Below, in pieces: positions 5,611-35,522 of a stretch of 64,000 nt of DNA. The notes beneath the pieces were generated by a model. The model saw only the letters and a program-made list of their open reading frames with translations, had not been told where the DNA came from and did not search any database. The position numbers and the translations under genes were made by a program. Position 1 is the first letter of the stretch, and every line of letters begins with the position of its first letter. Source of the stretch: Patescibacteria group bacterium (GTDB taxonomy: Bacteria > Patescibacteriota > Patescibacteriia > CAIXNZ01); contig JBAZJU010000006.1 in the NCBI GenBank assembly GCA_041651155.1, forward strand, positions 4,638 through 68,637, in the 5' to 3' direction.

Positions 5611-5615
5611 AAAAT

Positions 5616-11857: not shown

Positions 11858-11911
11858 TTTAATTTTACGGATCAACCAAATCAAATAATATGCGAATGAT
11901 TATTTAAATTT

Positions 11912-12298: not shown

Positions 12299-12332
12299 TC
12301 ATTAATATTAAAAAAAATATTTTTAAAATAAC

Positions 12333-13118: not shown

Positions 13119-13145
13119 ATGTTATAAATAAATAATTTAAAATCC

Positions 13146-13838: not shown

Positions 13839-13852
13839 ATAATTTTAAATCC

Positions 13853-14278
13853 ATGAAAAAGCTTTTTATCATTTTTGCTTTTATTGTTTTGCTAGCCGGC
13901 TGTTCTTTGCAGCCAATCACCAAACCAAATCAGTTGCCTAATAACACCAATCAACGCGCCTGCACTCAGGAAGCTAAACTTTGTCCTGATGGTTCAGCTG
14001 TGGGACGAACTGGCTCTAATTGCGAATTTGCGCCTTGTCCGGAAGTTAATTCTGCACTTTCTGAAGCAGAAGCCCGCGCTATTGCAGAAAAGGCCTGCAT
14101 TAAAGGCGGTGAGGCATTAAGCGCAGGAACTTATAATGCCATTACTAAAACCTGGTGGTTTGATGCTAATTTAAATGCTACCAAGCCAGGCTGCAATCCT
14201 GCTTGCGTGGTCAGTGAAACCACCAAAACTGCTGAAATAAACTGGCGCTGTACTGGCCTAATTCCGCCAAATCAATAA
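13853..14278 (+). CDS. Cys-containing lipoprotein; 5' end including upstream 18 nt is a near-identical duplicate of the preceding gene's signal-peptide region
   Basis: Signal MKKLFIIFAFIVLLAGCSLQ. DNA aataatttaaaatccatgaaaaagct... is repeated at 13128 and 13835. Confidence 0.65.
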   Translation: MKKLFIIFAFIVLLAGCSLQPITKPNQLPNNTNQRACTQEAKLCPDGSAVGRTGSNCEFAPCPEVNSALSEAEARAIAEKACIKGGEALSAGTYNAITKTWWFDANLNATKPGCNPACVVSETTKTAEINWRCTGLIPPNQ

Positions 14279-14719: not shown

Positions 14720-15820
14720 ATGCCTAATTTTGAACCAAAATTTGAACAACCAACAAAAACCAGCTTTGATTATGAGCAAGCGGCTCTTTTGGCGCGACAA
14801 AAAATTGAATTGGAAACCAGCCAGGACAAGCAAAAAAAAGCCCAGGTTAAAAGAGAAATCAAAGAAACTTATGGCGCTGAAGGCCAGGCTGGGCGCAGAA
14901 TTTTTGATTTGGAATTGGCAAAACAAAGATTAGAATTGGAAAAGGAAAAATCATTGGGGGAAGGAGAAATTAAATTAAAGGTTGATAAAAGGCAGATTGA
15001 TTTTGACAAAAATACACAAAGTTTTGATTACCCGACAGAAAAAGGATTTACACAAAAAGTCAGCCAGGGCGATTTACTGGCTGATATTAATTGGGGTTTG
15101 TATTATGGATTAAGTCACGATGTGCCAAAAGAATTTAAGGACCAATACATTGAAGCTGTCTATGATCGGGAAATCGCTAAAATATTTGACCAGCAATTAA
15201 TTATTCAGCGCCGTGAGCTTGAACGCGATCAGATTGATGATCTTTTGGACAGGACGTATCAGATAATCGGCGTTAATCTGGAAAGCAAAGGCAGTGAATC
15301 AGCCGGACTGCTTTTTGAAAAAATGATTAAAAATATTTTAAGCAAAGTAGCAATTGATTTGAAAAAATACGGCTTGAAAATCGAGCCGGCCACAGTTATT
15401 GAAGACGTAGAGGAAAAAATTGATTTTATAATCAAACATAAAAAGAATCGCGGGGTTGGTTTTGAAGAAATAAAAGAATCAGAAGGCGCGGAAGAAACAC
15501 TAGGCATCCAGTTTACTTTGAAAAGCGCCAAATCAGAAGATTTTAAGCATAAGCAAAGACAGGTAGCCAGGGCGCTTGAAAAACCGCATGAAATTGATGA
15601 TTTGGTTTTAATTTCAGTGCCAGTTGAACACGATGTGATTTTTGGCAATTATAAAAAATGGCAAAAGCATGACAAGCTGCCTGGCGGCCCGGAAAATTGT
15701 TTTAAGCCAGAGGTCATTGTTAATTTTATAAAAGAGATATTGAAAAATACAGATTTGGCCAAGGATGATGACTTTTTGCAAGATGTTAAGGAATATTTTG
15801 AAGGGAAAAGGGGGAATTAG
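14720..15820 (+). CDS. Hypothetical protein (366 aa, charged, coiled-coil N-terminus)
   Basis: Long ORF with coding-like composition; no confident domain. The segment DVEEKIDFIIKHKK could be a PD-(D/E)xK-like motif but this is speculative. Confidence 0.55.
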   Translation: MPNFEPKFEQPTKTSFDYEQAALLARQKIELETSQDKQKKAQVKREIKETYGAEGQAGRRIFDLELAKQRLELEKEKSLGEGEIKLKVDKRQIDFDKNTQSFDYPTEKGFTQKVSQGDLLADINWGLYYGLSHDVPKEFKDQYIEAVYDREIAKIFDQQLIIQRRELERDQIDDLLDRTYQIIGVNLESKGSESAGLLFEKMIKNILSKVAIDLKKYGLKIEPATVIEDVEEKIDFIIKHKKNRGVGFEEIKESEGAEETLGIQFTLKSAKSEDFKHKQRQVARALEKPHEIDDLVLISVPVEHDVIFGNYKKWQKHDKLPGGPENCFKPEVIVNFIKEILKNTDLAKDDDFLQDVKEYFEGKRGN

Positions 15821-15825
15821 GTTGG

Positions 15826-15935
15826 GTGAAAAGCCCATTTGTCATTCAGAACGAAGTGAAGAATCTATTACATCCAGTATCCCACGCTATGCTTTGAATG
15901 ACATAAGGACAAAGGGGCTTTTCGCCTTTAATTGA
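15826..15935. repeat. ~110-nt hairpin (MITE/REP-like) repeat family C copy 1, between hypothetical gene and dnaJ
   Basis: Shares ttgtcattcRgaaYgaagtgaRgaatctattacWtccag ... ctgaatgaca ... acaaaRgggc with copy at 25886-25995; arms are reverse complements (aaaagccc/gggctttt). Confidence 0.55.
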
Positions 15936-15941
15936 ATTATT

Positions 15942-17078
15942 ATGGGAAAAGATTACTACAATATTTTAGGCGTGGCAAAAAGCGCTTCCAAAGACGAGAT
16001 TAAAAAAGCCTTTCGCGAGAAGGCTCATGTTTTTCATCCAGATAAACCAGGCGGCGATGAAAAGAAATTTAAAGAAATCAATGAGGCTTACCAGGTTTTG
16101 AATAATGATCAGAAAAGGCAGCAATATGACCAGTTTGGAGCGACTTTTGATCAACAAGGCGGTTTTGGCGGTGGTATGGGTTGGGAAGATTTTATGCGCG
16201 CAGCCAGGCAAGGTGGGGGAACTTACAACAATGTTGATGTGGATATGGGAGATTTAGGTGATATTTTGGGTGATTTGTTTGGCGGTGGTTTTGGGTTTGG
16301 CGGAAATACGCGCAGACGCAAGACGACCACGCGCGGCCGTGACATTGAAGTTGATTTAAATCTTGATTTTAAAGAAGCTGTTTTTGGTACTGATAAAACA
16401 ATTGAATTATACAAATTAACCGCCTGCGATAGGTGTAATGGCAATGGCGCTGAGCCAGACACCAAGATTTCTGAATGCCAGGCCTGCAAGGGCCAGGGCA
16501 ATGTGCGTACTGTCCAGCGCACGATTTTGGGTCATATTCAGACAGTCAGAGATTGTCCTGAGTGCGGAGGCGAAGGCAAAAAGCCGGAAAAAGCCTGCAC
16601 AAAATGTGGCGGTACAGGCAGAACAAAGCAAAAAACAGATATTAATGTAAAAATACCAGCTGGCATTGATAATGGCATGAGTTTGAAAATGTCAGGCGCT
16701 GGCGAGGCTGGGATTAAAGGCGGTAAGGCAGGAGATTTATACCTTCATATTCATGTTAAGCCGGATCCATATTTTAAACGTGAAAATAATAATATTTTAA
16801 CCTCAATTGAAATACCATTTAGCGCTGCTTCCTTAGGCGCAAAAATTCCAGTTAAGACTATTGATGGCGAAGTTGAACTCAAAATTCCTGCTGGAACCCA
16901 GTCAGGCAATGTTTTTATTTTACGGGGCAAAGGCGCGCCTCATTTTCAGCATTATGGCTCGTCTTGGCCGAAGCCAGGCAAAGGCGATCAATTGGTGACA
17001 GTTAATATTAAAACCCCGGAACATTTGAGTAAAAAGCAAAAGGAATTGTTGGAGGAATTGAGGGGCGAGGGGATTTAA
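15942..17078 (+). CDS. dnaJ: Molecular chaperone DnaJ
   Basis: J-domain with HPD, Gly/Phe region, four CxxCxGxG zinc-finger repeats, C-terminal domains. Confidence 0.95.
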   Translation: MGKDYYNILGVAKSASKDEIKKAFREKAHVFHPDKPGGDEKKFKEINEAYQVLNNDQKRQQYDQFGATFDQQGGFGGGMGWEDFMRAARQGGGTYNNVDVDMGDLGDILGDLFGGGFGFGGNTRRRKTTTRGRDIEVDLNLDFKEAVFGTDKTIELYKLTACDRCNGNGAEPDTKISECQACKGQGNVRTVQRTILGHIQTVRDCPECGGEGKKPEKACTKCGGTGRTKQKTDINVKIPAGIDNGMSLKMSGAGEAGIKGGKAGDLYLHIHVKPDPYFKRENNNILTSIEIPFSAASLGAKIPVKTIDGEVELKIPAGTQSGNVFILRGKGAPHFQHYGSSWPKPGKGDQLVTVNIKTPEHLSKKQKELLEELRGEGI

Positions 17079-20501: not shown

Positions 20502-20975
20502 ATGGACCAAGGCTTTAATTTTAAAATTAACAAGCAAGCTCAAAGCATAGAATTTACCATAAATACTGAAATTTATTCTTTGACAGCGATTTACAATGCC
20601 GCCTATTTATTTTTGGATAAGGCGTATGTTTTTTTAGATGGCGATCCGAAGGCAGAGATCATCGCAATATTTAAAAGGAAAGAAGGGCAAAAAGAGGAAA
20701 ATGGGAGAGAAGGCTTGGAAAAGATTGCCGGAGAATTTTATAATGAACTTTTAAATCAGCTGTTGCGGGAAAAAGTAAGCGAGTCAAATGCAAAAATCAG
20801 GGAATATGTGGTTTCAGCCGCGCTTTATAACGCTGTGCCCAATGAGGTGGATAAGCTTTTGCAGGAAGTTGAGGAGGAAGATTGGCAGGAAGATCCTTTA
20901 GGGATTGCAAAAACATGGGAGGATAATGAGAAGAGCAAAGAGGGTAAGAAGGGAGAAATGGGAAAATGGAAGTAA
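20502..20975 (+). CDS. Hypothetical protein
   Basis: 157 aa; acidic/basic C-terminus. Confidence 0.5.
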   Translation: MDQGFNFKINKQAQSIEFTINTEIYSLTAIYNAAYLFLDKAYVFLDGDPKAEIIAIFKRKEGQKEENGREGLEKIAGEFYNELLNQLLREKVSESNAKIREYVVSAALYNAVPNEVDKLLQEVEEEDWQEDPLGIAKTWEDNEKSKEGKKGEMGKWK

Positions 20976-21166
20976 TTAAGTTTAATAAAAAGATTTATAG
21001 TCTTGAAGCAATTGAAAAGGCGATTAATGAATTTAAAAATTTAGCTGAATTTAAGATAAAAGATGAGGCTGATTACTTTGAAGTGCAAATTGATAAAATT
21101 GATAATGAATATGAAGGTGTTTTGAAAGATGAATTTGGAAATTATGTATTGGGATTGATGAGCTGA
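20966..21166 (+). CDS. Small hypothetical protein (66 aa), start overlaps previous stop
   Basis: ORF only; overlap ATGGAAGTAATTAAG with previous gene end suggests coupling. Confidence 0.35.
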   Translation: MEVIKFNKKIYSLEAIEKAINEFKNLAEFKIKDEADYFEVQIDKIDNEYEGVLKDEFGNYVLGLMS

Positions 21167-21225
21167 TCTATAAGCACCAAAATTCAAATCCCAAATCACA
21201 AATAAATTTCAAAAATCAAATAACA

Positions 21226-21270
21226 AACCTTCGTCCCGCCCAGCGGGACTACGGTTTGCAAAGGCAAATA
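21226..21270. repeat. Structured repeat family B copy 2 (aaaccttcg-gtcccgcccagcgggac-tacggtttgcaaaggcaaat)
   Basis: See 17788-17831; compensatory stem substitution. Confidence 0.5.
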
Positions 21271-21288
21271 AAAAACAAAAACAAAAAT

Positions 21289-21636
21289 ATGGATAAGAAG
21301 TACGATTTAGAAGATCGCACCTTAGAGCTTGGAAAAGAAATAATTCGTTTATGTAAAACTTTACCTGCTAATACTATAAACTTTAGGCTAATAGATCAGT
21401 CTATTCGCTCTGGGACATCAGTTGGCGCCAATTATCGAGAAGCAAATGAAACTGACACAAAGAAAGATTTTAGATTTAAAATTAGAATTTGTTTAAGAGA
21501 AGCTAGGGAAACAATTTATTGGCTTGAGCTTATAAAAGAGGCTAACCAAAATTTTTCTGCCAGGATTGATAAATTGATTAGTGAGACAAGAGAAATAGTT
21601 AAGATTTTTGGTTCAATTTTGGAGAAATCTAAATAG
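21289..21636 (+). CDS. Four-helix-bundle protein (23S rRNA intervening-sequence-type protein family)
   Basis: Start at MDKKYDLEDRTLELGKEI; motif SVGANYREA ... DF ... REA...E typical of this family. Confidence 0.65.
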   Translation: MDKKYDLEDRTLELGKEIIRLCKTLPANTINFRLIDQSIRSGTSVGANYREANETDTKKDFRFKIRICLREARETIYWLELIKEANQNFSARIDKLISETREIVKIFGSILEKSK

Positions 21637-21737: not shown

Positions 21738-23219
21738 ATGTTAGATTTACAAACCATCAACAATTTAGATACCAAGTCAGTAGGATATTTTCGATTTAAA
21801 CAGTTTGGCAATGAATATCTGCTGACTAATGAAACTGGGGAGTATGTTTTTTTACCTGAAAATAATTTCAAGGAATTTTTAACTGGAAAGCTAGATTCTA
21901 AAAGTGAAAATTTTCAGGAGTTACTAAACAAGTCGTTCCTTAAAGATAAAAATTATCTGGCGAATGCAGTTTTAAAGTATCGCGAGCGCTATCATTTTTT
22001 AAAATTCGGGCCGTCTTTGCATATTGTGGTTGTAACTTTAAGATGCAATCATAAGTGTATTTATTGCCATGCCAGCGCCGGTAGCAGCGAGGATAAAGGT
22101 TTAGACATGGATTTGGCAACTGCCAAGAAAGTAGTAGATACGATTTTTCTCACTACCAATGATGCGATTTGTATTGAGTTCCAGGGCGGAGAGCCGCTTC
22201 TAAATTGGCCGGTGGTTAAATTTATCATTTCTTACGCAGCGGAAAAAAATAAGCTGGAAAAGAAAAATTTAATTTTTAGGCTCGTGTCCAATTTTAGCTT
22301 GATGGATGAAGAAAAAATGAAGTTCCTGATGGACAATGAAGTTTACTTCTGCACTTCGCTTGACGGCGACGAGGAAACTCATAATTATAATCGCATTTAT
22401 ACGGAAGGCAATAGCTATCAGAACGCGGTCAACTGGATAAAAAAGATAAACGCCGAATACGAGGAAGTAAATAAGGGCAAGAAAAAAAATTATTATAGAG
22501 TAGGCGCCTTGATAACTGTGACCAAAAAAACACTGGCTAGTTACAAAGAAGTGATAGATACTTATCTTGAGCTTGGCTTTAAAAGCATTTATCTGCGCTA
22601 TTTATATCCTTATGGCTTTGCCAGGCAAGCCAAAGAAAAAATTTGGTACACAGTAGATGAGTATGTTGACTTTTATAAAAAATCTCTTGATTATATTTTA
22701 GCCAAAAATTATCAGGGCCAGCTTTTTTACGAGAACATGGCCGCGACTTATTTGCGCAAGATTTTAGACCAGGAGGAGCCTCATAATCTGGATATGCGTT
22801 CGCCCTGCGGCGCGGTCATCGGCCAATTATCTTACAATTACAATGGTGATGTGTACACTTGTGATGATTCCAGGTCTCTTTCCAGACTAGGTGATGAAAC
22901 ATTTAAACTGGGCAATATTAAGCAAAATACTTTTAGCGAGCTGGTAAATAACAGTTTATGCAAATCAATGTGCGTTGCCTCATGCACCAATGGCTTGCCT
23001 GGCCATAATGAGAGCGTTTACCAGCCATATTGGGGAGCCTGTCCGGTCTACAATTATTGTCTTTCCGGCAATATATTCCCGGCCATGAAGGAAAATTTTA
23101 AATGGCAAATTGATGAGCAAATTCTTGATTATATTTTTGAAAAATTAAAAGATAAAAAAAATAAGGATATTTTTAAGGAATGGTGCAAAGCTTCACGGCC
23201 GAGAGCGAAATATGAATAA
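21738..23219 (+). CDS. Radical SAM/SPASM-domain peptide-maturase-like enzyme (493 aa)
   Basis: CX3CX2C at LRCNHKCIYCHA, GGEPLL motif, C-terminal Cys-rich SPASM-like region (CGAVIG ... CDDS ... CKSMCVASCTNG ... CPVYNYC). N-terminal region YFRFKQFGNEYLLTNETGEYVFL resembles peptide-maturase N-termini. Confidence 0.85.
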   Translation: MLDLQTINNLDTKSVGYFRFKQFGNEYLLTNETGEYVFLPENNFKEFLTGKLDSKSENFQELLNKSFLKDKNYLANAVLKYRERYHFLKFGPSLHIVVVTLRCNHKCIYCHASAGSSEDKGLDMDLATAKKVVDTIFLTTNDAICIEFQGGEPLLNWPVVKFIISYAAEKNKLEKKNLIFRLVSNFSLMDEEKMKFLMDNEVYFCTSLDGDEETHNYNRIYTEGNSYQNAVNWIKKINAEYEEVNKGKKKNYYRVGALITVTKKTLASYKEVIDTYLELGFKSIYLRYLYPYGFARQAKEKIWYTVDEYVDFYKKSLDYILAKNYQGQLFYENMAATYLRKILDQEEPHNLDMRSPCGAVIGQLSYNYNGDVYTCDDSRSLSRLGDETFKLGNIKQNTFSELVNNSLCKSMCVASCTNGLPGHNESVYQPYWGACPVYNYCLSGNIFPAMKENFKWQIDEQILDYIFEKLKDKKNKDIFKEWCKASRPRAKYE

Positions 23220-23300: not shown

Positions 23301-23801
23301 ATGCTAAACAAACTGCCAAAACTAAAGAAAAAATTTCAGGAATTTCTTAATGATGAAGAAGGCAAGATAACTAAAAAAGATATTATCATGCTTGGCATTG
23401 GCGCAAGCGCGCTTGGCATCATGGCCGAAGGAATCAATGCTGCTCATGCTGCTACGCCCACTTGTAGCGCAGGTGGTGGAGTTTATACCTCACCGCCAAA
23501 TTATGTTCAATGCAATGAAGGTTGGGCAGGAAGTTCAGGCTGCGGACCTCATGATTGCAACGGCGGTGGCTCGGGCTCAACTACCAATCTATGCCAAAAT
23601 AATTTGTCATACCCTTTGGGTTCTTGCACTAATACCCCCGGAGCTATTTGCGGGGTGGATATAGGAGATACTCATTTCGGCCATAATAATTTTGTTCATA
23701 ATGAAGGAGTAGTCGGTTCTCATTGCTCACACGGCTCTCATGGCTCTCACGGCTCACACGGCTCTCATGGCTCTCATGGCTCTCATGGGTTTGCCGGTTA
23801 A
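23301..23801 (+). CDS. Secreted Cys/Gly-rich protein with C-terminal (Ser-His-Gly)x7 = His-Xaa-Ser repeat tail; candidate radical-SAM substrate (HxsA-like)
   Basis: Charged N-terminal ~30 aa, hydrophobic segment MLGIGASALGIMAEGINAAHAA, 10 Cys core, then SHCSHGSHGSHGSHGSHGSHGSHGFAG. Confidence 0.7.
   Translation: MLNKLPKLKKKFQEFLNDEEGKITKKDIIMLGIGASALGIMAEGINAAHAATPTCSAGGGVYTSPPNYVQCNEGWAGSSGCGPHDCNGGGSGSTTNLCQNNLSYPLGSCTNTPGAICGVDIGDTHFGHNNFVHNEGVVGSHCSHGSHGSHGSHGSHGSHGSHGFAG
23726..23789 (+). repeat. Tandem 9-bp repeat (cayggctcw)x7 encoding the His-Gly-Ser repeats; frame-preserving simple sequence repeat
   Basis: Seen directly: cacggctct catggctct cacggctca cacggctct catggctct catggctct catgggttt. 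Confidence 0.8.
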
Positions 23802-23811
23802 ATTATATTTT

Positions 23812-24648
23812 ATGAAAAAAATAATTTTGATATTAGCGATAATAGCCTTATTAATAATTGTTGGTGTAGTTATTTTTTTTATTTATCTCAAAGCACCAGC
23901 GCGGCCAACAAATGTAAATCAGCCAGTGGCGGTTGCCAAAGAAAAAATTATTGGTAATTTTTCATTATTTCTTAATGAGCTAATAAATGTACAAAAAGTA
24001 CAGCCAGTTGCACTCACACCAATATTGGAATACTTAAGTTTTTGTGAATTTAAAAATAATAACATCTCTTTTGATCAGCAATGCATTAAGACCAATGAAA
24101 CATATTATGGCGTAAAAAATAGCTCTGCCGATTGCACCATTAAAGATGGAGATTTTGCTGAAATTGATTTTATCAAAAAAGGAGAACAAGACAATTTTTT
24201 GAAAATTTGCCAAGAATATATTTCTGCTCTTAATACCTATTACAATAATAATTCTCAAGAAAAAACAAGTTTAAACGCCCAAAGGTTTTATCAGTTTTAT
24301 AATGATTGTAATTTGCTTTGGGATAATAAGCTATATGGCGATAACGAATATTGTGATGCTGGAGATAATTGCTATGCAATCTTGCTGCCAGAGGACCAAA
24401 ATTGTCCTAATAAAATAAAGATTGATACCGTCAGTCTTGATAGCATTAAAACGGTTCAATGCCAAACTCAAGTCGGCTTTAGAAGAGCCAGCCAAAAATC
24501 AGATTGTCTGAACATCAAGAATTTAATGGCTCGGCTCTTTTGCCTTGACGCATTTGACAATAATCTTTGCTCAGAAGTCACAGCCAGCGTGGAAAATTTA
24601 AAATTACAAGATTTTGTGACAAAATATCAATTACAAACTGCCCAGTAA
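23812..24648 (+). CDS. Cys-rich membrane-anchored (signal-anchor) extracytoplasmic protein
   Basis: Start at MKKIILILAIIALLIIVGVVIFFIYL (ATG 23812), since the six-frame ORF start at 23740 lies inside the previous gene's repeat; about 14 Cys. Confidence 0.6.
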   Translation: MKKIILILAIIALLIIVGVVIFFIYLKAPARPTNVNQPVAVAKEKIIGNFSLFLNELINVQKVQPVALTPILEYLSFCEFKNNNISFDQQCIKTNETYYGVKNSSADCTIKDGDFAEIDFIKKGEQDNFLKICQEYISALNTYYNNNSQEKTSLNAQRFYQFYNDCNLLWDNKLYGDNEYCDAGDNCYAILLPEDQNCPNKIKIDTVSLDSIKTVQCQTQVGFRRASQKSDCLNIKNLMARLFCLDAFDNNLCSEVTASVENLKLQDFVTKYQLQTAQ

Positions 24649-24741
24649 ATTATGTAAAATTTTACCGATAGGCCATTGCCAAAATGGCTTATTTTTTTTA
24701 TTATTAAGTAACAATGGGGTGAAAAAGCCTTTGGTTTAATT

Positions 24742-25881
24742 ATGGCAAAAACGCTTAAAAACGATAAATTTTGGCTATCAATCAGCACCAGATGCAATAA
24801 TCAGTGCCTTTTTTGCCATGATAAGGAAAATCAGGTAAACGGACGTTTTTTTACATTGGCAGAGGTTCAAGATAAGATTGAACAGGCAAAAAAAGAAGGT
24901 TACAAGCGTTTGATTTTAAGCGGCGGGGAAGCTTCAATTAATCCTGATTTTTTGAAAATAGTCAGATATGCTCACGATTTAGGCTTTAAAGAAATCCAGA
25001 CAATCACTAATGGCCGCTATTTTTATTATTCCAAATTTGCCGCTGAGGCGATTAAAGCCGGTCTGACTGAAATAACTTTTTCTCTGCACGGCCATAACGA
25101 AGAACTGCACGAGGAATTTACCGGAGTTAAGGGTTCTTTTCAGCAGGCTTTAACTGGCCTGGCTAATGTCAGAAAATATCCGCAAATAATTGTTAATATT
25201 GATATAGTGATTAATAAATTGAATTACCCAAAGTTATATGACATAATTCAGTTTTATGCCCAGAATTTCGGGGTCTATGAATTTGATCTTTTACAAGTTG
25301 TCCCTTTTGGCCAAGCCTGGGAAAATCGTGATAAATTATTTTATGATTTTAATGATGCTTTGCCTTATCTGAACAAAGTGTGGGAGCTGGCAAAAAATGA
25401 CCAGAGATTTCATATCTGGACCAATCGTTTCCCGGCGCAATATCTGGAGGGTTATGAATTTTTGATTCAGGATCCGTATAAATATTTTGACGATGTTTTG
25501 GGACGCAAAAAAATGTTTGCGGAATTTATAAATGAAAATAAATTAATGCCTTGTTTTAATCCGGAGCGTTGCAAATCGTGCAACCTAAACGATTTTTGCC
25601 AGAAATTAATTAATTTAACAAAAGGAGATTTGTCAGACAAATTAATGAAATTAACAATGCCGCCTGTTTGTCTTGATTTGCCCCGCGATAATTATGAGAT
25701 TAATTTTTTGAATGCGCAAGGCAGAATCAATTTGGAAAAATTTGTGGATTTTTATATTAATAATTTGTACAACCTTAAATCTTTACGTTGCGATGATTGT
25801 AATAAATTTAAAGATTGTAACGGATTGAATATTAATTTAATTAAGGAAAAGGGTTTTAAAGTTTTAAAGCCAATATCATGA
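24742..25881 (+). CDS. Radical SAM enzyme with C-terminal partial-SPASM/twitch Cys motif; paralog 1 of six tandem copies (379 aa, longest)
   Basis: CX3CX2C at RCNNQCLFCHD (residues 18-25), SGGEASINP, CKSCNLNDFC (CX2CX5C). Confidence 0.85.
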   Translation: MAKTLKNDKFWLSISTRCNNQCLFCHDKENQVNGRFFTLAEVQDKIEQAKKEGYKRLILSGGEASINPDFLKIVRYAHDLGFKEIQTITNGRYFYYSKFAAEAIKAGLTEITFSLHGHNEELHEEFTGVKGSFQQALTGLANVRKYPQIIVNIDIVINKLNYPKLYDIIQFYAQNFGVYEFDLLQVVPFGQAWENRDKLFYDFNDALPYLNKVWELAKNDQRFHIWTNRFPAQYLEGYEFLIQDPYKYFDDVLGRKKMFAEFINENKLMPCFNPERCKSCNLNDFCQKLINLTKGDLSDKLMKLTMPPVCLDLPRDNYEINFLNAQGRINLEKFVDFYINNLYNLKSLRCDDCNKFKDCNGLNINLIKEKGFKVLKPIS

Positions 25882-25885
25882 CCAG

Positions 25886-25995
25886 GGCGAGAACGCCCTT
25901 TTGTCATTCCGAATGAAGTGAGGAATCTATTACTTCCAGGATTCTTCGCTTCGCTCTGAATGACAGTGAAGACAAAAGGGCGTTTTCGCCCGACA
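25886..25995. repeat. ~110-nt hairpin repeat family C copy 2, inserted between radical SAM paralogs 1 and 2
   Basis: Same conserved core as 15826-15935 with compensatory arm changes (acgccc/gggcgt vs agccc/gggct). Confidence 0.55.
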
Positions 25996-26004
25996 ATTAA
26001 TTCT

Positions 26005-26940
26005 ATGGCTAATCTAGGCTACATCCAATTAAACAGAACCTGTAATCAAAAATGCCTTTTTTGTTCTAATCCAGAAAACGGCAATGTTTTGGATTTAGCT
26101 CAAGTCAAATTTTATATTGATGATTTTGCGAATAAAAATTATCAGGGCGTAATTTTAACCGGCGGCGAGCCGACTTTAAATGCAGATTTAGAAAAAGTAA
26201 TTAGTTATGCCAAGTCCAAAGGTTTGGAAGTAAGGATAATTACCAATGGCCAAAAAACAGCTGACTTAGAATATCTAAAGAAACTAAAAAATGTCGGCTT
26301 GGATTTAATTCATGTTTCAGTGCAGTCTTATGACCCGAAAATCCAGGATTATCTGAGCCAAAATCCAGGTTCATTAAAAAATATCCTAAAAACTTTGGTT
26401 AATGCTTGGCGCCTGAATTTGCCTGTAAATATAAATACAGTGATCAATAGTTTTAATGCCAAAAGCCTGGATAAAAATATTAAATTTTTTCTGGTTAAAT
26501 TTCCAGAAATTAATCATTTTGTTTTTAATAATCTAGATCCTGAAATGAATCGGGTAGAGCAAAATAAATTTGTGGTGCCAAGATTAATTGATTTCAAGGA
26601 ATCTTTAAAAAGAGCTTTTGAATCGTTAAGTAAATTTGGCAAAACTTTCCGGGCAGAAAGAGTGCCTTTATGCTATATGGCTGAATATGGAGAATTTTCC
26701 ACCGAAACCAGAAAAATAGTTAAAAATGAAGAAAGAAGCATTTTATTTCTGGATGATAGAAAAGATCCTTATAGCATCCAAAAAAATTTTTATTATAAAA
26801 AAGCAAAACAGTGCGGCCAATGCAGCCTGAATGATATTTGCGCGGGTCTGTATGCCATGGATACGTATTTTGACAGTAGGGAATTGGAGCCGCAGCTGAT
26901 TGATAAGCAACTCATTATTAATAAAATTAAAAATGAATAA
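26005..26940 (+). CDS. Radical SAM twitch-domain enzyme, tandem paralog 2
   Basis: Start at MANLGYIQLNRTCNQKCLFCSNPENG (ORF track start 25960 lies in the repeat element); LTGGEPTLN; CGQCSLNDIC. Confidence 0.8.
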   Translation: MANLGYIQLNRTCNQKCLFCSNPENGNVLDLAQVKFYIDDFANKNYQGVILTGGEPTLNADLEKVISYAKSKGLEVRIITNGQKTADLEYLKKLKNVGLDLIHVSVQSYDPKIQDYLSQNPGSLKNILKTLVNAWRLNLPVNINTVINSFNAKSLDKNIKFFLVKFPEINHFVFNNLDPEMNRVEQNKFVVPRLIDFKESLKRAFESLSKFGKTFRAERVPLCYMAEYGEFSTETRKIVKNEERSILFLDDRKDPYSIQKNFYYKKAKQCGQCSLNDICAGLYAMDTYFDSRELEPQLIDKQLIINKIKNE

Positions 26941-27814
26941 GCGGGTGGAAATTTATATTGGTTTTAAATGCAATAATGATTGTGTTTTTTGCGTTGAAAG
27001 AAATATCCGCCTGCAAAATAAAGATAAAATTTTATACTCCGATCTGACTGCAATTGTCAATAAAATTAAGGATTTGAAAAATCAAGGCTATGGCCATATT
27101 AATTTTTTGGGCGGGGAGCCATTTTTGGAAAAAAACTTTTTGCCTTTTTTGCAGGCCGCTAAACAAAATGGCCTGTCCACCGCAGTCACCACCAATGGCA
27201 GCCTGCTTAGCAATGAAGAAATCGCCAAGTCACATTTGCCTTTGCTTGATGATTTGATTATCTCTATTCATGGCCACAATGAAGAACTGATAAGCCAGCA
27301 ATCAAAAAATCCCGGTTTGTTTAAAAGTTTGCTTGAGGCTTTTGCTAATATAAAAAAATATTTTCAAGGCAGACTGCTTAAAGCCAATTGCGTAATAAAT
27401 AAATTAAATTATAAAGATCTGCCGGAAATTATTGAGTTTATTTGTACTAACGGCATCCACGAAATTAGCCTGACAAATATGTCTCTCAAAGGTTACAATA
27501 ATGAATATGTTGTGCCTTTGAGCGAACTAAAAAAAGTTATACCCAAAATCGCAGATTATGCCAAAGAAAATAATTTGGTTCTTCGTTTTTCTGATTTGCC
27601 CTTTTGTATTTTGGGGGATAATTATTATCTGACTAATGAAATTTTTGCCGATGAGCGCGTTAAATATAATGCGGCCAATAAAGAGGAAAGTTTTTGGCGG
27701 CCCAAGCTTAAAACCGAAAAATGTAATGAGTGCAAGCTCAAGGATCTATGCATGGGAATTGATTTAGAATATTATAAATTATTTGGGGATTGTGAATTGA
27801 ATTCGGTAATATGA
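26933..27814 (+). CDS. Radical SAM twitch-domain enzyme, tandem paralog 3 (start overlaps stop of paralog 2: ATGAATAA)
   Basis: MNKRVEIYIGFKCNNDCVFCVERN; LGGEPFLE; CNECKLKDLC. Confidence 0.8.
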   Translation: MNKRVEIYIGFKCNNDCVFCVERNIRLQNKDKILYSDLTAIVNKIKDLKNQGYGHINFLGGEPFLEKNFLPFLQAAKQNGLSTAVTTNGSLLSNEEIAKSHLPLLDDLIISIHGHNEELISQQSKNPGLFKSLLEAFANIKKYFQGRLLKANCVINKLNYKDLPEIIEFICTNGIHEISLTNMSLKGYNNEYVVPLSELKKVIPKIADYAKENNLVLRFSDLPFCILGDNYYLTNEIFADERVKYNAANKEESFWRPKLKTEKCNECKLKDLCMGIDLEYYKLFGDCELNSVI

Positions 27815-27986
27815 AATTTTTTGTATTTTTGGATCTCCGCCTTTTGATTCTAGACAAAATTACAAATTAGCTACAAATTTAACAAAACAATAACTAGAAA
27901 AAGTCTTTTTGTATGTTTTGTATAAAAATTCGTAATTTTGTAGGAGTCAACCATTTTATACCCCACCTAAAGTTAAATATACCGAT

Positions 27987-28883
27987 ATGAGAAACATTGA
28001 GATTAACATTGGCAATAGCTGCAATAATGAATGTCTTTTTTGTATGGTGGACCACTCCAGCCGTGGTTTTGTTGCTTATAAAACAATTGAAAAAGAGATT
28101 ATCAGGGCAAAACAAAATGGTTTTGAGTCCATTGGTTTTTTAGGCGGGGAATTTACCTTGCATCCTGAGGTTTTAAAAATTGTAAAACTAGCCAAGATTT
28201 TAGGTTTTAAGATTATTCACATCATTAGTAATGGCCGTAAATATCAAGATGAGAATTTTGTCAAACAACTAATTAATAATGGCGTTAATCGCTTCTCAGT
28301 TTCAATCCATAGCCATAAGATGGAAGTTGAAGATTATTTAACGCAAAGGCCGGGAGGATTTGCAGAAAAAATTCAGGGCTTGAAAAATTTGGTAAAAATG
28401 AATCAGCCTGTTTCAGCTAATTTAGTCATCAACAACTTGAATTATCAGGATATTGCGGAAACTTTAAATTTTTTAAACGGGCTAGGAATTATTGATTTTC
28501 GTTTGAATTTTATCTGGTTGCATGGCCGGGCTTTAGCTAACCAAAATTTATTTCTTAAATTTAATGACTTTTTGCCTTTGGTGGATAAAATTATTAATCT
28601 GGCAAAAGAGAAAAATCTTACCATTGCTTTTGAAGGAATACCCGCTTGTTTAATTAAAGATAACAATAAATTGGATTACATCGGCGAATTAAGAGATTTA
28701 AAAACAGAAGTGGTAGCTTTTAATAATCCGCAAAAAGAAAGAGAAAATTTTAATTGGCAGGAAAGGAAGACCAATGAATTTAAAATTAAGCATGAAAAAT
28801 GCCTGGAGTGCGTTTATAATAATTCTTGCGAGGGTGTATGGAGAGATTATATTAACTTCTTTGGCTGGAAGGAATTTTTTTAA
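27987..28883 (+). CDS. Radical SAM twitch-domain enzyme, tandem paralog 4
   Basis: IGNSCNNECLFCMVDHS; LGGEFTLHP; CLECVYNNSCEGVW; ends FGWKEFF. Confidence 0.8.
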   Translation: MRNIEINIGNSCNNECLFCMVDHSSRGFVAYKTIEKEIIRAKQNGFESIGFLGGEFTLHPEVLKIVKLAKILGFKIIHIISNGRKYQDENFVKQLINNGVNRFSVSIHSHKMEVEDYLTQRPGGFAEKIQGLKNLVKMNQPVSANLVINNLNYQDIAETLNFLNGLGIIDFRLNFIWLHGRALANQNLFLKFNDFLPLVDKIINLAKEKNLTIAFEGIPACLIKDNNKLDYIGELRDLKTEVVAFNNPQKERENFNWQERKTNEFKIKHEKCLECVYNNSCEGVWRDYINFFGWKEFF

Positions 28884-28937
28884 ATATCAATCCGAAGAAG
28901 CGATTGGCCAATCGCTTCTTCGGACAAGTTTTATCCT

Positions 28938-29786
28938 ATGTCTTTAATCCGCTTAACAAATTTATGCAATGCAAAATGTTTATTCTGCAATTTCCCAGAT
29001 GATTGCCGAGTTTTAAGTTTGGACGAAGCAAAAAAAGAAATTGATACTATTACTGATGATTCGGTTGCTTTTACTGGCGGTGAGCCAACGATTCATCCGT
29101 TTCTTAAAGAGACAATTAGTTATGCCAAGCAAAAAGGGATTAAAAACATTGAACTGCAAAGCAATTGTTTTTTGCTTGAAAATTTAGATTTGGTTAAGGA
29201 ATTAAAAGCATTGGGTTTGACCGGAGTTTTTGTTACAGTTCATTCTGAGCAAAAAGAAGTTTTTGAAAAAATCACCCAGGTGCCCGGGAGTTTTGAAAAA
29301 GTTTTGCAAGGAATCGCTAATTTAATTTCCTTAGGGGTTAAAGTGCGAATCAATATTGTTATTAATTTTTTAAATTATAAGAATCTAGAAGAAATCACTA
29401 AATTTATTTACAGCCAATTTCCACAAATAAAAAGTATTGATTATTCTTTTGTCGTACCGGTTGAAAAAGTTTTAAAGCAGCCAGAATTATTGCCAAAAAT
29501 AAGCGAGGTTGTACCATTTTTAAAAAAAGCCTTTAAATATTGCCAGGAAAATAAAATTAGTTTTTCTAATCCAGGCTGTGGCCTGCCTTTATGTTTTATT
29601 CCCGAATATAAAGAAAATAGTTTGGAATATAATTTTTTAAAAAAACAAATAGAAAATGGGTTAATTTCTGATAATCGTTTTGAAAAGATTAAGTTTGCTA
29701 AATGCAAAACCTGTGAATTTGATGAATTTTGTCTGGGCTTTTGGCCAAATTATGTTAAAATTCACGGTGAGCAGGAATTTATTTAA
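28938..29786 (+). CDS. Radical SAM twitch-domain enzyme, tandem paralog 5
   Basis: RLTNLCNAKCLFCNFPDD; FTGGEPTIHP; CKTCEFDEFCLGFW. Confidence 0.8.
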   Translation: MSLIRLTNLCNAKCLFCNFPDDCRVLSLDEAKKEIDTITDDSVAFTGGEPTIHPFLKETISYAKQKGIKNIELQSNCFLLENLDLVKELKALGLTGVFVTVHSEQKEVFEKITQVPGSFEKVLQGIANLISLGVKVRINIVINFLNYKNLEEITKFIYSQFPQIKSIDYSFVVPVEKVLKQPELLPKISEVVPFLKKAFKYCQENKISFSNPGCGLPLCFIPEYKENSLEYNFLKKQIENGLISDNRFEKIKFAKCKTCEFDEFCLGFWPNYVKIHGEQEFI

Positions 29787-29797
29787 TTTTATTATTT

Positions 29798-30691
29798 ATG
29801 GACAGAGTTGATATAAAAATCGGCTTTAAGTGCAATAACAATTGCCAGTTTTGCGTCCAGGGTGAAAAAAGGTATAAACATGAGAACAGAACATTGGATG
29901 AGATTAGGAACGCTTTAGCAGAGGCCAAAGGACAAGGCGCCGCAGGCGTGGTTTTTACCGGAGGTGAGCCGACCATTCATCCTGATATTTTGGCAGCCGT
30001 AAAATCCGCCCGTGATTTGGGTTTTAAAAATATCCAGATTCAATCAAACGGCCGGATGTTTGCCTATTTGGATTTTTGCAAAAAGTTAGTTTTGGCCGGG
30101 GCAAATGAATTTTCCCCGGCTTTGCACGGCTCAAACCCAGAAATCCATGATGAATTAACCAGCAGTCCTGGCGCGTGGCAGCAAGTGGTGCAGGGGATTA
30201 AAAATTTAAAATCACTGGGGCAGCATGTTTTGACCAATACAGTAATTAATTCTGAAAATTATCAGGATTTGCCAAAGCTGGCCCAGCTTTTTGTTGATTT
30301 GGGCGTTGACCAATTCCAATTTGCCTTTGTCCATATTTTGGGTACGGCAGAAAAAAATAAAGATTGGATTGTGCCAAAGATGAGTGAAGTGATGCCTTTT
30401 GTAAAACAAGGCTTGGAGATCGGGATTAAGGCAGGGAAGGTTGTGATGACTGAAGCTATCCCTTTTTGTTTAATGCAGGGCTATGAAGATTTTATTGCCG
30501 AAAGGATAATGCCTGAAACAAAAATTGTTGATGCCGAAGGCGTAATTGAAAATTTTGCTGACTATCGTTGGAATCAGGGGAAAGTTAAAAGGGAAGAATG
30601 CAAGGTGTGTAAATTTTTTAAGCTTTGCGAAGGCCCCTGGAAAGAATACCCGGAAATTTTTGGCTGGGATGAATTCCAGCCGATCTTATAA
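29798..30691 (+). CDS. Radical SAM twitch-domain enzyme, tandem paralog 6
   Basis: IGFKCNNNCQFCVQGEKR; FTGGEPTIHP; CKVCKFFKLCEGPW; ends FGWDEFQPIL. Confidence 0.8.
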   Translation: MDRVDIKIGFKCNNNCQFCVQGEKRYKHENRTLDEIRNALAEAKGQGAAGVVFTGGEPTIHPDILAAVKSARDLGFKNIQIQSNGRMFAYLDFCKKLVLAGANEFSPALHGSNPEIHDELTSSPGAWQQVVQGIKNLKSLGQHVLTNTVINSENYQDLPKLAQLFVDLGVDQFQFAFVHILGTAEKNKDWIVPKMSEVMPFVKQGLEIGIKAGKVVMTEAIPFCLMQGYEDFIAERIMPETKIVDAEGVIENFADYRWNQGKVKREECKVCKFFKLCEGPWKEYPEIFGWDEFQPIL

Positions 30692-30693: not shown

Positions 30694-32175
30694 ATGCAAA
30701 ATCCATTTGAAGTTATTTTTTTAGCTTTTTTATTTATCTTTGGCATCATAATCTGCTATGAGGATTTTAGGTTTGACAAAATCAGGAATAAATGGATTAA
30801 ATGGGGTTTTATAATCGGCGTTGCTTTGTACTTGTTGCAGATTATTTATTTAATTTTTTCATCTCAAACAATTGAATTGCATAATTATTGGCAGATAATT
30901 TTAAATACCTTGATTGCCTTTGTTTTGGGGTTTACCCTCTGGTATTTTAAGCTTTGGTCAGGAGGTGATGCGAAACTATTTACTCTCTTTGTTTTTTTAC
31001 TGCCGATCAGCTTCTATTCTGAATGGAATTTTATTTATTGGCCGCCTTTAAATTTATTGATAAATATTACAATTCCGATTTTTATTTATTTGCTGATTAA
31101 ATTTTTACTTTATCCCTTTCAATTGCTGATAAATTATCTAAAAAATCCCCATTTACTTAAAGAATATTATCGCAATTATAAAAGCAGGAATAAGCTTGAT
31201 AAGAAAAAAATCAATGAATATTTGGCTGCGGCCTTGAGCTTTGTTATAATTTTGATATTTTTTCAAATTATAAGAGTGCGGTTGGGCGATTTTTTGCATC
31301 CTTATCTCGGCAGCCTGATGATTGCTTTTTACTTTTTTATGGGTTTTGTAGTTTTTCAGCCCTTGCGGAAATTAATGCAAAAAAGAATTATTTTGGCTTT
31401 AATTTCAGTGATTGCGTACTTTGTGGCTGGAATCATATTTTTTCGTAATTTGGTTTTCGCTGATTTGCACAATTTATTTGCCGTGCAGTTAATTTTTATG
31501 CTTTCTTATTATTATATCTTCAAATACGGCAAAGCCCTGATTATGTTTTTGTATAATTCAGCTGAAGTAAGAATGATTCCGGTAGAAGAACTGCAGGCCG
31601 GAGTTTACATTAACAAAGATTATGTCAGTAATGTTTTAGGCAATCGTTTTAATCTGGAAAATTTTAAAAACAGCCTGGATGCAACTTTGGCTAATGAGGA
31701 CAAGGAACAATTATGGAGCCTGCTTAAGCAAAAATCAGACAAAAGCCATAAGGAAAAACAATATATTCAGCTGGTTGCTTATTTGAATCCGCAAAGTTGG
31801 CCGTATTTAATCAAGCAAATTTTTCAGATAAGAAAACAAAAAAAGGCTGGCCAAGACCTGTTGGAAAAAATTTCCGCCAAGTTAAATTTAGAACAAAAAT
31901 CAGAATTAGAAAATATTTTAAATCACACGGATGAATTTAAAAAATTTTTAAAGTCAATTCGCGGAAAATTAACTGCAGAGCAAGCAGACAAACTAAAGGC
32001 CATGATAATGCAAAGAAACGAAGAGATTAAAGCCCATGGCTTGCAGCCGATTGATAAAATTATTTTGCATAAAACCTTTGCTTTTGCGCCTTTTATGCTT
32101 TTGGGCGTGATTATAACTCTCGTCACAAAAAGTTCTTTAATTCATTTAATTTACGTTTACATTTTGCACAAGTAG
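30694..32175 (+). CDS. Prepilin-peptidase (A24 aspartyl protease)-like polytopic membrane protein fused to a ~330-aa C-terminal TM/coiled-coil extension
   Basis: Motifs CYEDFRFDKIRNKW (first Asp region) and LWSGGDAKLFTLFVFLLP (cf. GxGDVKL second catalytic Asp of PilD/FlaK/TadV); starts 3 nt after paralog 6. Confidence 0.6.
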   Translation: MQNPFEVIFLAFLFIFGIIICYEDFRFDKIRNKWIKWGFIIGVALYLLQIIYLIFSSQTIELHNYWQIILNTLIAFVLGFTLWYFKLWSGGDAKLFTLFVFLLPISFYSEWNFIYWPPLNLLINITIPIFIYLLIKFLLYPFQLLINYLKNPHLLKEYYRNYKSRNKLDKKKINEYLAAALSFVIILIFFQIIRVRLGDFLHPYLGSLMIAFYFFMGFVVFQPLRKLMQKRIILALISVIAYFVAGIIFFRNLVFADLHNLFAVQLIFMLSYYYIFKYGKALIMFLYNSAEVRMIPVEELQAGVYINKDYVSNVLGNRFNLENFKNSLDATLANEDKEQLWSLLKQKSDKSHKEKQYIQLVAYLNPQSWPYLIKQIFQIRKQKKAGQDLLEKISAKLNLEQKSELENILNHTDEFKKFLKSIRGKLTAEQADKLKAMIMQRNEEIKAHGLQPIDKIILHKTFAFAPFMLLGVIITLVTKSSLIHLIYVYILHK

Positions 32176-34361: not shown

Positions 34362-35522
34362 ATGGATTTAGAAAGCTATAAGAAATTAGTTGAGGAATTA
34401 GATGATAAAATTGGGAAAAAAAGAAATTCGATTAGAATATTATTTTTCATTGCTTTATTCATAGTTTTGTTTATTTTAGCTAATAAATATTCTTGGGCTG
34501 AAACTTTGGGCTGGAAGTTTGCATTAGCTTTTATTTATACTTGCTATCCAGGCTTTATGCTATGGGCTCCATGGGATTTTAACTGGATTTTGCAGTATTT
34601 TAAAAGCTATAGGGAATTATTGCAAAAAATAAAAAGTTATAAGGAGGAAATAAAAAAAATAGAAGAAACAAATAAAGTAGTGAAAAATAAGGAAGGGATT
34701 GAGAAGCTTGAAAGATTGAGAACTGTTTATTCAGAAATTTTTAATAGAAGAATAAGCGTTGAATCTTTGGAAGAATATGAGGAGTTTATTAGTATTGATA
34801 AAGATTTGTCAACCAATAATTATTACTTTGATTATGAGACTCGTAGGAAATATGAATTACTGCACAAATATTCAAAACAATTACAAGAAAGAATAATAAA
34901 TTTTAATCAAGATAAAAGAATCGGGGTGGTAAAAACGTTTATTGGTATAAAAAATGAAAATATTTCTAATGAATCTGATGTAAAAATAAATTTTAATGCT
35001 GAACAAAAAGTAAGATTAGTAAATATTGAAAGTTTTAAAAATAAATATAAGCAGTATAAGATTCGAGACGGAAAAGAGGATTGGAGGTCTGGTAGAAAGA
35101 TCAAAATTGATTATTTAAAGAAAAATTTGCAAAACATTAATCTTGGGTTACAAGGCGAATTAATTGTATTGGATTGGGAGAGAGATAATCTAATTCAATG
35201 CGGTCTTAACAATTTAGCTGAAAAAGTTCGGCACATATCGCAAGAGCTTGGAGACGGAGTAGGATTCGACATACTTTCTTATGACGAAAATGGTAACGAA
35301 AAATTTATAGAAGTAAAAACTACAAAAAGTGGCATGAATACTCAGTTTTATTATTCTGAAGGTGAATTGAATTTTATTAATAATACACAAAATTATTATT
35401 TATATCGTTTGAATTTAGAAAATGAGGATGAAGCGGAATTGACGATTATTAGTAAGGACGAATTTTTGAATAAGTTTGAAGTTTTACCTTATCAATATAG
35501 TGTTAAATTTAAAAATGAATGA
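34362..35522 (+). CDS. Membrane-anchored protein with C-terminal DUF3883-like (PD-(D/E)xK nuclease-fold) domain
   Basis: Two N-terminal TM helices, coiled-coil middle, C-terminus GELIVLDWERD...GFDILSYDENGNEKFIEVKTT...YLYRL matching DUF3883/NOV C-terminal signature (D...E-V-K). Confidence 0.6.
   Translation: MDLESYKKLVEELDDKIGKKRNSIRILFFIALFIVLFILANKYSWAETLGWKFALAFIYTCYPGFMLWAPWDFNWILQYFKSYRELLQKIKSYKEEIKKIEETNKVVKNKEGIEKLERLRTVYSEIFNRRISVESLEEYEEFISIDKDLSTNNYYFDYETRRKYELLHKYSKQLQERIINFNQDKRIGVVKTFIGIKNENISNESDVKINFNAEQKVRLVNIESFKNKYKQYKIRDGKEDWRSGRKIKIDYLKKNLQNINLGLQGELIVLDWERDNLIQCGLNNLAEKVRHISQELGDGVGFDILSYDENGNEKFIEVKTTKSGMNTQFYYSEGELNFINNTQNYYLYRLNLENEDEAELTIISKDEFLNKFEVLPYQYSVKFKNE

Follow-up and report, generated by a model that had tools for sequence, protein, structure and literature searches.

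Six tandem HxsC-like radical SAM genes flanked by His-Xaa-Ser system genes in a Patescibacteria contig

The 64,000 nucleotides of Patescibacteria contig JBAZJU010000006.1 analyzed here (the window) contain, between positions 24742 and 30691, six consecutive plus-strand open reading frames (ORFs) for radical S-adenosylmethionine (SAM) proteins, which we call P1 to P6 and which within the window are flanked only by genes of the His-Xaa-Ser (Hxs) type and by a gene for an A24-type peptidase. An earlier account, the sequence-only reading, had described them as six paralogous radical SAM genes on one strand. This description holds, with all six matching the Radical_SAM family PF04055 (E-values of 9e-18 to 2e-27, 65-97 bits against a cut-off of 29.5) and all six carrying its motifs; what that account had missed is that the array belongs to an Hxs locus. 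Counted from their six-frame starts the ORFs comprise 379, 326, 304, 298, 282 and 297 codons, and with the starts of P2 and P3 corrected they are as follows.

24742..25881, plus strand: P1, 379 residues, HxsC-like radical SAM protein with two C-terminal four-cysteine motifs
26005..26940, plus strand: P2, 311 residues from its true start; PF04055 at 6e-25, HxsC at 93.5 bits
26933..27814, plus strand: P3, 293 residues from its true start; PF04055 at 9e-18, HxsC4 at 90 bits
27987..28883, plus strand: P4, 298 residues; PF04055 at 5e-22, HxsC4 at 141 bits over the full model length
28938..29786, plus strand: P5, 282 residues; PF04055 at 1e-23, HxsC4 at 91 bits and HxsC at 90 bits
29798..30691, plus strand: P6, 297 residues, the most conserved member; HxsC4 at 166.5 bits

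We place the start of P2 at the ATG at 26005, and not at the six-frame start at 25960, because the N-terminus that it gives, MANLGYIQLNRTCNQ, is also that of the orthologs in four related loci (L005, L007, L009 and L051; loci from other genomes carry L numbers throughout). P3 starts at the ATG at 26933 and overlaps the P2 stop by 8 nt, as it does in the sister locus L007. The cluster-binding motif CNxxCxFC (CX3CX2C), which begins within residues 11-24 of the true N-terminus, is kept in all six paralogs, together with a GGE motif, a VIN..N strand and a C-terminal CX2CX5C motif followed by a glycine, one residue separating the two in P2-P6 and in the second such motif of P1. P2-P6 have a further cysteine in a 'P.C' motif some 40-50 residues upstream of CX2CX5C, which brings their C-terminal cysteines to four. 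Some details of the sequence-only reading were too broad: the GGEP form that it gave for the whole array occurs in P2, P3, P5 and P6, P1 having GGEA and P4 GGEF, and the FGW.EF ending is truly present in P4 and P6 only, the other four showing looser variants. Its estimate by eye of 30-40% identity was right about strong divergence and slightly too high in its range, which is 24.2-34.8% in a MAFFT alignment.

The same account called the enzymes twitch-type, a class with one auxiliary Fe-S cluster in a short C-terminal cysteine domain. By cysteine count only, the label suits P2-P6 with their four conserved C-terminal cysteines; an AlphaFold2 model of P6 built on a 14-sequence alignment has a confident core (predicted local distance difference test score, pLDDT, 85.5) and low confidence, 41-57, over residues 260-297, where those cysteines lie. 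The label does not suit P1, which is without the 'P.C' cysteine at the aligned position and carries instead an insertion of about 75 residues with a second CX2CX5C. Eight C-terminal cysteines (C271, C277, C280, C286, C310, C350, C353 and C359) are invariant in P1 and 15 database homologs; these would suffice for two clusters, and by its sequence P1 is not a simple one-cluster twitch enzyme. Its two-motif domain of about 130 residues is covered by no structure match.

Six genes in tandem might also be read as a decaying pseudogene series or as an artefact of assembly or recent duplication, an explanation that draws on the tandem arrangement only and to which we give almost no credence. All reading frames are open, neither frameshifts nor lost cysteines were found in the six paralogs, and identities of 24-35% exclude near-identical copies; P1 and P6 recur as identical sequences in independent public collections, and P5, P6 and the A24-type gene lie together on an independent Logan assembly contig as well. 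The motifs CX3CX[FYW]C and CX2CX5C are kept in every ortholog of P1-P5 and in 79 of 80 P6 orthologs. Nei-Gojobori comparisons with L002 or L007, taken where they were computable and giving rough figures since dS is near saturation, yielded ratios of nonsynonymous to synonymous substitution (dN/dS) of 0.04 for P6 and of 0.09-0.31 otherwise (0.16 for P5 against L002), with dN far below dS throughout. All six paralogs are under purifying selection. On the strength of divergence, intact motifs and dN/dS we reject the pseudogene or artefact explanation; the proposal of an old, maintained expansion is borne out, each paralog having motif-intact orthologs elsewhere and dN/dS lying well below 1.

The genes around the array place it in the context of the His-Xaa-Ser (HXS) system. 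Canonical HXS systems are encoded by hxsD-hxsB-hxsC-hxsA, corresponding to TIGR03976-03979 (Haft; Li et al., Nat Commun 2026, PMC13128918). HxsB, HxsC and HxsD are needed there for the N-terminal processing of HxsA, for a gain of 8 Da on its HxS motif and for its export; HxsC binds HxsD, and mature HxsA blocks the entry of phage DNA (PMC13128918). The corresponding part of the window and the two ends of the array are laid out as follows.

20502..20975, plus strand: HxsD homolog, 157 residues; TIGR03976 at 63.7 bits against a cut-off of 50, 30% identical to Nostoc HxsD
20966..21166, plus strand: HxsD-like small protein, 66 residues; NF038315 (HxsD_rel) at 78.8 bits against 41
21256..21636, plus strand: four-helix-bundle protein of the '23S rRNA intervening sequence protein' type; TIGR02436 at 90 bits against 24
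21738..23219, plus strand: HxsB, radical SAM/SPASM maturase, 493 residues; TIGR03978 at 500.4 bits against 370, with a Pfam SPASM domain
23301..23801, plus strand: HxsA4-like precursor, 166 residues, with leader, hydrophobic helix, cysteine-rich core and C-terminal (SHG)7
23809..24648, plus strand: membrane-anchored cysteine-rich protein, 279 residues from the ATG at 23809; no family match
24667..24700, plus strand: terminator-like hairpin with a run of eight T, between the gene for the 279-residue protein and P1 (consensus scan only)
30694..32175, plus strand: 493-residue membrane protein with an N-terminal A24 prepilin-peptidase-type aspartyl protease domain; PF01478 at 27.2 bits against 26.5 (marginal)

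The window HxsB is 34-38% identical to the products of annotated plasmid hxsB genes, and the order HxsD, small protein, HxsB recurs in eight related loci (L024, L049, L053, L054, L062, L081, L084 and L206). Where related loci contain the HxsD-like gene as well as hxsB, the two leave no room between them for the four-helix-bundle gene, which is probably an unrelated insertion; an AT-rich repeat of CAAAT type (21178-21227, also at 5483-5532) precedes it. The 279-residue protein has counterparts at the same position in L007 and L008, the one in L007 being 28% identical.

The precursor carries a leader (KKKFQEFLNDEEGKITKKD; leader peptide FLNDEEGKITKKD) ahead of its hydrophobic segment, and its C-terminus, HCSHGSHGSHGSHGSHGSHGS, ending in HCSHGSHGSHGSHGSHGSHGSHGFAG, is encoded by 9-nt tandem repeats that yield seven consecutive H-x-S units, one HCS and six HGS, or equally seven SHG. 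The leader pattern FLxxEEGKIxKKD is common to 85 of 120 database homologs, some of them named HxsA4 by NCBI; homologs that share it have a median of nine HxS units, often with a tryptophan at the end. The precursor scores below the cut-offs of both HxsA3 (40.9 against 65 bits) and HxsA4 (41.6 against 55 bits). Its exact sequence was not returned from a collection of 5.8 billion proteins, in which the best match had 61 bits, unlike P1 and P6 of the same contig, and the annotation of the source probably missed this small repeat gene.

At the other end of the array, the A24-type gene starts 2 nt after P6, as an A24-like gene follows the last radical SAM gene in close sister loci. Its product has the motifs EDFRFDKIRN, of the form ED..K(I/V)(R/K)N, and GGDAK, the latter found in 9 of 9 close relatives. 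We regard it as a candidate for leader removal, linked to the precursor by gene order only; a simple prepilin-like cleavage site (between G and FTLxE) was not found in the precursor leader.

The paralogs themselves point to HxsC. The best NCBIfam match of each is HxsC4 (NF038332; P1 and P3-P6) or HxsC (TIGR03977), the HxsC match of P2 spanning positions 10-290 of the 292 in the model, and the six are 22-28% identical to HxsC of Aeromonas and Nostoc plasmids. The C-terminal signature CX2CX5C-x-G-[FW] of canonical HxsC (CKACVEKDHCGGFF and CDDCASKAVCCGFF) appears as CKVCKFFKLCEGPW in P6 and has an equivalent in all six. NCBI names both P1 and P6 simply 'radical SAM protein'. We suggest, with a probability of roughly 0.55, that the array represents an expansion of the HxsC-like component in a variant His-Xaa-Ser maturation system of HxsA4 type, whose most likely role, judged from gene neighborhood and by analogy, would be the multi-step radical maturation of an HxS-repeat protein. 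The earlier description of the enzymes as serial tailoring enzymes is a reasonable reading in this respect.

This interpretation draws on the recurrence of the same genes in other genomes. P6 has relatives at 364 loci of a genome collection; the counts given here come from the best 80 (53-87% identical) and their 10-kb flanks, and are lower bounds, many contigs ending inside a flank. These 80 loci belong to Patescibacteria, Elusimicrobia, Omnitrophota, Margulisiibacteriota, Myxococcota and Woesearchaeota, and hold a median of five and a maximum of nine HxsC-like radical SAM ORFs each, with six in 18 loci, so that the array, which had been called unusual, is so for textbook genomes and is common in uncultivated phyla. 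Within 10 kb of P6 we find HxsB in 34 loci, HxsD in 21, an A24-like gene in 34 and an HxS-repeat ORF in 17, nearly all of the latter with the same leader. Two loci found independently of P6 confirm this design. In L084 (Omnitrophota, found through HxsA4), genes for HxsD, the small HxsD-like protein, HxsB and HxsA4 precede nine Pfam radical SAM genes; among the nine are a P6 ortholog (58% identity), four other genes of HxsC-like type, one HemN-like gene and one B12-radical SAM gene; the stretch fetched also contains a 335-residue ORF without a family match. L206 (Spirochaetes, found through P1) has nine radical SAM genes and then an HxS precursor, HxsD, the small protein and HxsB. In L023, a Woesearchaeota locus that has no array, a P6 ortholog lies beside HxsB and HxsD homologs on the opposite strand.

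At a threshold of 45% identity the HxsC-like proteins of these loci form at least 15 orthogroups, of which each genome holds a subset and several large ones are absent from the window. P6 is represented in 78 loci (by construction), P2 in 20, Elusimicrobia included and at 45-74% identity, P1 in 14, P4 in seven, P3 in six closely related ones, and P5, the narrowest in distribution, in only four (40% identity). The P2 family is also marked by a faint match to PF13344 (HAD-like Hydrolase_6) within the radical SAM core, seen in P2 (25960-26940) and in its L205 homolog (11655-12599), which is probably a chance resemblance. P6 orthologs occur in Woesearchaeota without an array, the one in L034 (10001-11586) adjoining ORFs that, by eye and at their N-termini, resemble the anaerobic ribonucleotide reductase NrdD and its activase NrdG, and this distribution suggests transfer between bacteria and archaea.

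In the closest relatives of the window the array occupies the same chromosomal site, upstream of the A24-like gene, a small coiled-coil gene, cysS and dus, and its copy number varies, from two to about nine radical SAM genes. The arrangements differ as follows.

L002 (the closest relative; P6 87% identical): an APH-type kinase gene between P4 and P5, P6 with a 300-residue extension, then a phosphoenolpyruvate (PEP) swivel-domain protein
L003: P2, a 311-residue ORF, P6, a glycosyltransferase, A24
L004 and L005: P1, P3, P4, P2, P6
L006: P2, P6, A24
L007: about nine radical SAM genes, a glycosyltransferase and a radical SAM-HD fusion
L051: adds a carbamoyltransferase

The overlaps of 4 or 8 nt between genes in sister arrays suggest an operon. 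The extended form of P6, an ORF of about 600 residues with a 300-residue C-terminal extension, occurs in L002 (2888-4690), L005 (10001-11791) and L009 (10001-11815); the L002 extension, the only one scanned, matches no Pfam family, and together with the PEP-utilizing swivel protein of that locus it could represent a split phosphotransferase. Downstream in the window, a 386-residue NOV_C (PF13020) protein is encoded between cysS and dus (34362-35522); dus directly follows cysS in L003 and L006, and the NOV_C gene looks like an inserted one.

Several observations weigh against an HxsC-like function in peptide maturation. No paralog reaches the cut-off of HxsC (70-99 against 267.9 bits) or of HxsC4 (63-166.5 against 500 bits), and all six are without the N-terminal domain of about 110 residues of canonical HxsC, whose core starts at about residue 105-120 in the Aeromonas and Nostoc proteins (401 and 394 residues). 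The terminator-like hairpin separates the hxsD-B-A part from the array, P1 starting 1.5 kb after hxsB behind two other genes and that hairpin, and in a consensus scan a promoter-like site lies just before P1. P6 orthologs stand alone in some genomes (for example L034, L076 and L077). The top PDB matches of the P6 model in Foldseek were BlsE, SkfB, SuiB, GDGT-MAS, viperin and MoaA, and the closest solved structures are in part enzymes with sugar or nucleotide substrates (BlsE, viperin and DesII) and in part peptide maturases (SkfB and SuiB); no solved HxsC-type structure was found in a PDB sequence search, and PADLOC v2.0 returned generic viperin-model matches to the radical SAM cores only, which are uninformative. 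The glycosyltransferases, carbamoyltransferase, APH-type kinases and PEP-utilizing swivel protein of the sister arrays are typical also of small-molecule and sugar pathways.

The hairpin with its promoter-like site, these added enzymes and the HD-domain fusion, the structural neighbors and the solitary P6 genes point to another possibility, a separate operon that makes a small molecule, a sugar or nucleotide derivative or a cofactor, acting on a non-peptide substrate and lying merely beside hxsD-B-A. We take this possibility seriously and yet judge it on the unlikely side. The 64-kb window contains no sugar, nucleotide, tetrapyrrole, NifH/NifDK-like, HemN-like or B12-radical SAM genes, and what flanks the array is of Hxs or A24 type. 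Arrays of this kind occur repeatedly with HxsB, HxsD and HxS-repeat precursors in unrelated phyla, the families that match best are of HxsC type and share the C-terminal HxsC motif, and the serines of the repeats could just as well be the targets of the kinases and glycosyltransferases.

A further argument for a cofactor comes from nitrogenase-like gene clusters. Homologs of P1 and P2, and P6 orthologs in Elusimicrobia loci, adjoin NifH-like genes: five Elusimicrobia loci contain NifH-type P-loop ORFs, and L205 combines at least 13 radical SAM genes with a Fer4_NifH gene and two Oxidored_nitro genes. Suites of up to 13 radical SAM genes are known to adjoin Group VI nitrogenase-like (Nfl) genes in Elusimicrobia, Gracilibacteria and Myxococcales (Meheust et al., 2020, bioRxiv 10.1101/765248). 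They have been proposed to make an unknown tetrapyrrole-type cofactor (bioRxiv 10.1101/765248), a matter unresolved in 2026 (PMC13474568). No HxS-repeat peptide was found within 10 kb in the NifH/NifDK-like loci with P1 and P2 homologs, which counts, like the points above, against a peptide substrate for these families.

Three of the junctions between the genes of the array contain sequence elements.

25885..25991, P1/P2 spacer: palindromic hairpin repeat, with a second copy at about 15824-15927
27815..27986: P3/P4 spacer of 172 nt, with an AT-rich hairpin and the recurring motif AATTCGTAATTTTGTAGGA (27927-27945)
28891..28924, P4/P5 spacer: perfect palindrome with a 15-bp stem, -23.9 kcal/mol, z = -6.0

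The repeat of about 110 nt that had been noted between P1 and P2 (25886-25995) and again at 15826-15935 is real, its two copies being about 81% identical over an element of about 100 nt (direct alignment of 25870-26010 with 15810-15950, a repeat search with 12-nt seeds having missed the 25886/15826 pair). It had also been said to overlap the six-frame start of P2; since the repeat ends before the true start of P2, it lies in the spacer and overlaps no gene. Folding gives a single long hairpin for the P1/P2 copy (-63.6 kcal/mol, z = -10.6) and a weaker structure for the other (-36.9 kcal/mol, z = -4.6), which lies between an unnamed gene and dnaJ; small terminator-like hairpins lie at both ends of the element. 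Its 27-mer core occurs three times in the window against 0 expected, and exactly in at least 120 metagenome contigs of 25% to 69% GC, often with an inverted partner nearby. The core has no match in 83 related loci, which places the element outside the conserved array. That it was inserted at this junction, as previously proposed, agrees with L007 and L008, which do not have it and in which P1 and P2 are 1-2 nt apart. What we see here is a palindromic intergenic element, very widespread elsewhere, that has inserted locally. Searched with Rfam at gathering thresholds, the whole window has a single match, a tRNA; neither the hairpin element nor the spacers match.

Spacers of 123 nt (P1/P2), 172 nt (P3/P4) and 54 nt (P4/P5) set the window apart from the sister arrays, in which genes abut or overlap by 4-8 nt (4 nt for P3/P4 in L007), and the APH-type kinase gene of L002 lies at the position of the P4/P5 palindrome. 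These three spacers may be scars of gene gain or loss. One could see in the array a variable repertoire at a hotspot of gain and loss, through which each lineage decorates one envelope protein in its own way, driven by conflict with phages or hosts. Sister arrays at one site with differing gene numbers and added enzymes, the many orthogroups of which each genome holds a subset, the repeat and hairpin scars at junctions that in relatives hold other genes or lack a spacer, and the antiphage role of canonical HXS (PMC13128918) are all consistent with this. We nonetheless think it improbable: P6, P2 and P1 are conserved across phyla and under strong purifying selection, which is atypical of fast-changing conflict genes, and the window annotation gives no evidence of mobile-element genes flanking the array.

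The window contains further repeats. The 19-nt motif AATTCGTAATTTNGTAGGA occurs exactly at 506-524, 5593-5611 and 27927-27945 (three occurrences against 0.12 expected), with weaker copies near 3300 and 4590. The copies are intergenic, lie 5-56 nt upstream of gene starts, one of these being P4, and usually come just after a GC-rich hairpin repeat; the motif may represent a promoter of this organism or a regulatory module of another kind. Direct intergenic repeats of 88-95% identity pair 446-524 with 5533-5611, 3231-3315 with 4520-4604, and 13125-13225 with 13832-13932, and the first two of these families hold GC-rich palindromes, which points to several hairpin repeat families in the genome in addition to that of the P1/P2 spacer. 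Within the gene at 8687-9388, positions 8853-9072 comprise three 84-nt tandem repeats that seemingly encode a cysteine-containing unit (about YCGD..CNNNETC, by eye from the DNA).

Returning to the proposal of an expanded Hxs maturation system, we envisage the following pathway. The leader FLxxEEGKIxKKD would dock the precursor on a cytoplasmic maturation machinery, in which HxsD and the HxsD-like protein might serve as adaptors by analogy with the canonical HxsC-HxsD complex. HxsB and the six HxsC-like enzymes would then carry out 5'-deoxyadenosyl radical chemistry, each making a different modification or acting at a different position, on the His-Xaa-Ser repeats and the core region or on groups attached to them. 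P6 would probably perform the core HxsC-equivalent step, and P1-P5 accessory tailoring that differs between lineages. The product would be exported, lose its N-terminus to a signal peptidase, to the A24-type peptidase or to both, and act at the cell envelope. Our weakest suggestion, made by analogy, is that it may form an envelope barrier against phage; the SHG repeats are neutral, not basic, and therefore the DNA-binding mode proposed for HXS need not apply.

A broader and more speculative picture, which we consider doubtful, is that such arrays are a widespread modular radical SAM 'assembly line' of uncultivated small-genome lineages, turning secreted HxS-repeat proteins by heavy modification into an envelope polymer, be it a phage-entry barrier or a metal-binding surface layer. 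With the same families at work in the Group VI nitrogenase-like clusters, as this picture would have it, these clusters might likewise act on, or be scaffolded by, a peptide and not a free tetrapyrrole.

In Patescibacteria, a lineage known for small genomes, seven radical SAM genes occupy about 7 kb, and the benefit that selection maintains them for must be strong. Only recently was the four-gene HXS system found to block the entry of phage DNA, and the radical chemistry behind its +8 Da on the HxS motif is unsolved. The loci described here would represent a much larger version in Patescibacteria, Elusimicrobia, Omnitrophota and Spirochaetes, and hence outside the reported range of HXS; its HxsC-like enzymes number up to nine or ten, its conserved leader is distinct, and a dedicated membrane peptidase is predicted. 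The divergent paralogs offer a natural series for working out the function of HxsC-type enzymes, and the enzyme families held in common with nitrogenase-like radical SAM clusters provide a new, testable lead on the function of those clusters. Our literature search found no paper on a multi-radical SAM Hxs architecture, in the candidate phyla radiation or otherwise, or on its link to nitrogenase-like clusters.

Compared with twitch/SPASM radical SAM enzymes of solved structure, identity is only 13-26% (BlsE, 7vob; SkfB, 6efn; SuiB, 5v1t; MoaA; viperin). With the suites of Group VI nitrogenase-like clusters the array shares many consecutive radical SAM genes and, through P1 and P2, homologs in NifH-like clusters; it differs from them in the absence from the window of NifH/NifDK-like, HemN-like and B12-radical SAM genes. 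With canonical HXS the locus shares HxsB and HxsD above their cut-offs, tandem His-Xaa-Ser units, an N-terminal export segment, and paralogs that have the CX3CX2C and C-terminal CX2CX5C-x-G-[FW] motifs of HxsC. The differences are these: six HxsC-like genes stand against one, an additional HxsD-like gene is present, the gene order is another, and an A24-type peptidase is attached. Unlike canonical HxsA, the window precursor has the leader FLxxEEGKIxKKD, no peptidoglycan-binding domain, and neutral SHG units in place of basic H(R/S)S. The host is a member of the Patescibacteria, whereas 99.7% of canonical systems are found in Pseudomonadota and more than 99.8% have four genes (PMC13128918). With the NCBIfam families HxsA4 (NF038313), HxsC4 (NF038332) and HxsD_rel (NF038315) the agreement is partial: the HxsD-like protein of the window passes NF038315, whereas the best paralog reaches 166.5 of the 500 bits set for HxsC4, and the radical SAM genes tested from L084 fall below that cut-off as well. 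The existence of these three models indicates that curators have already seen a variant system.

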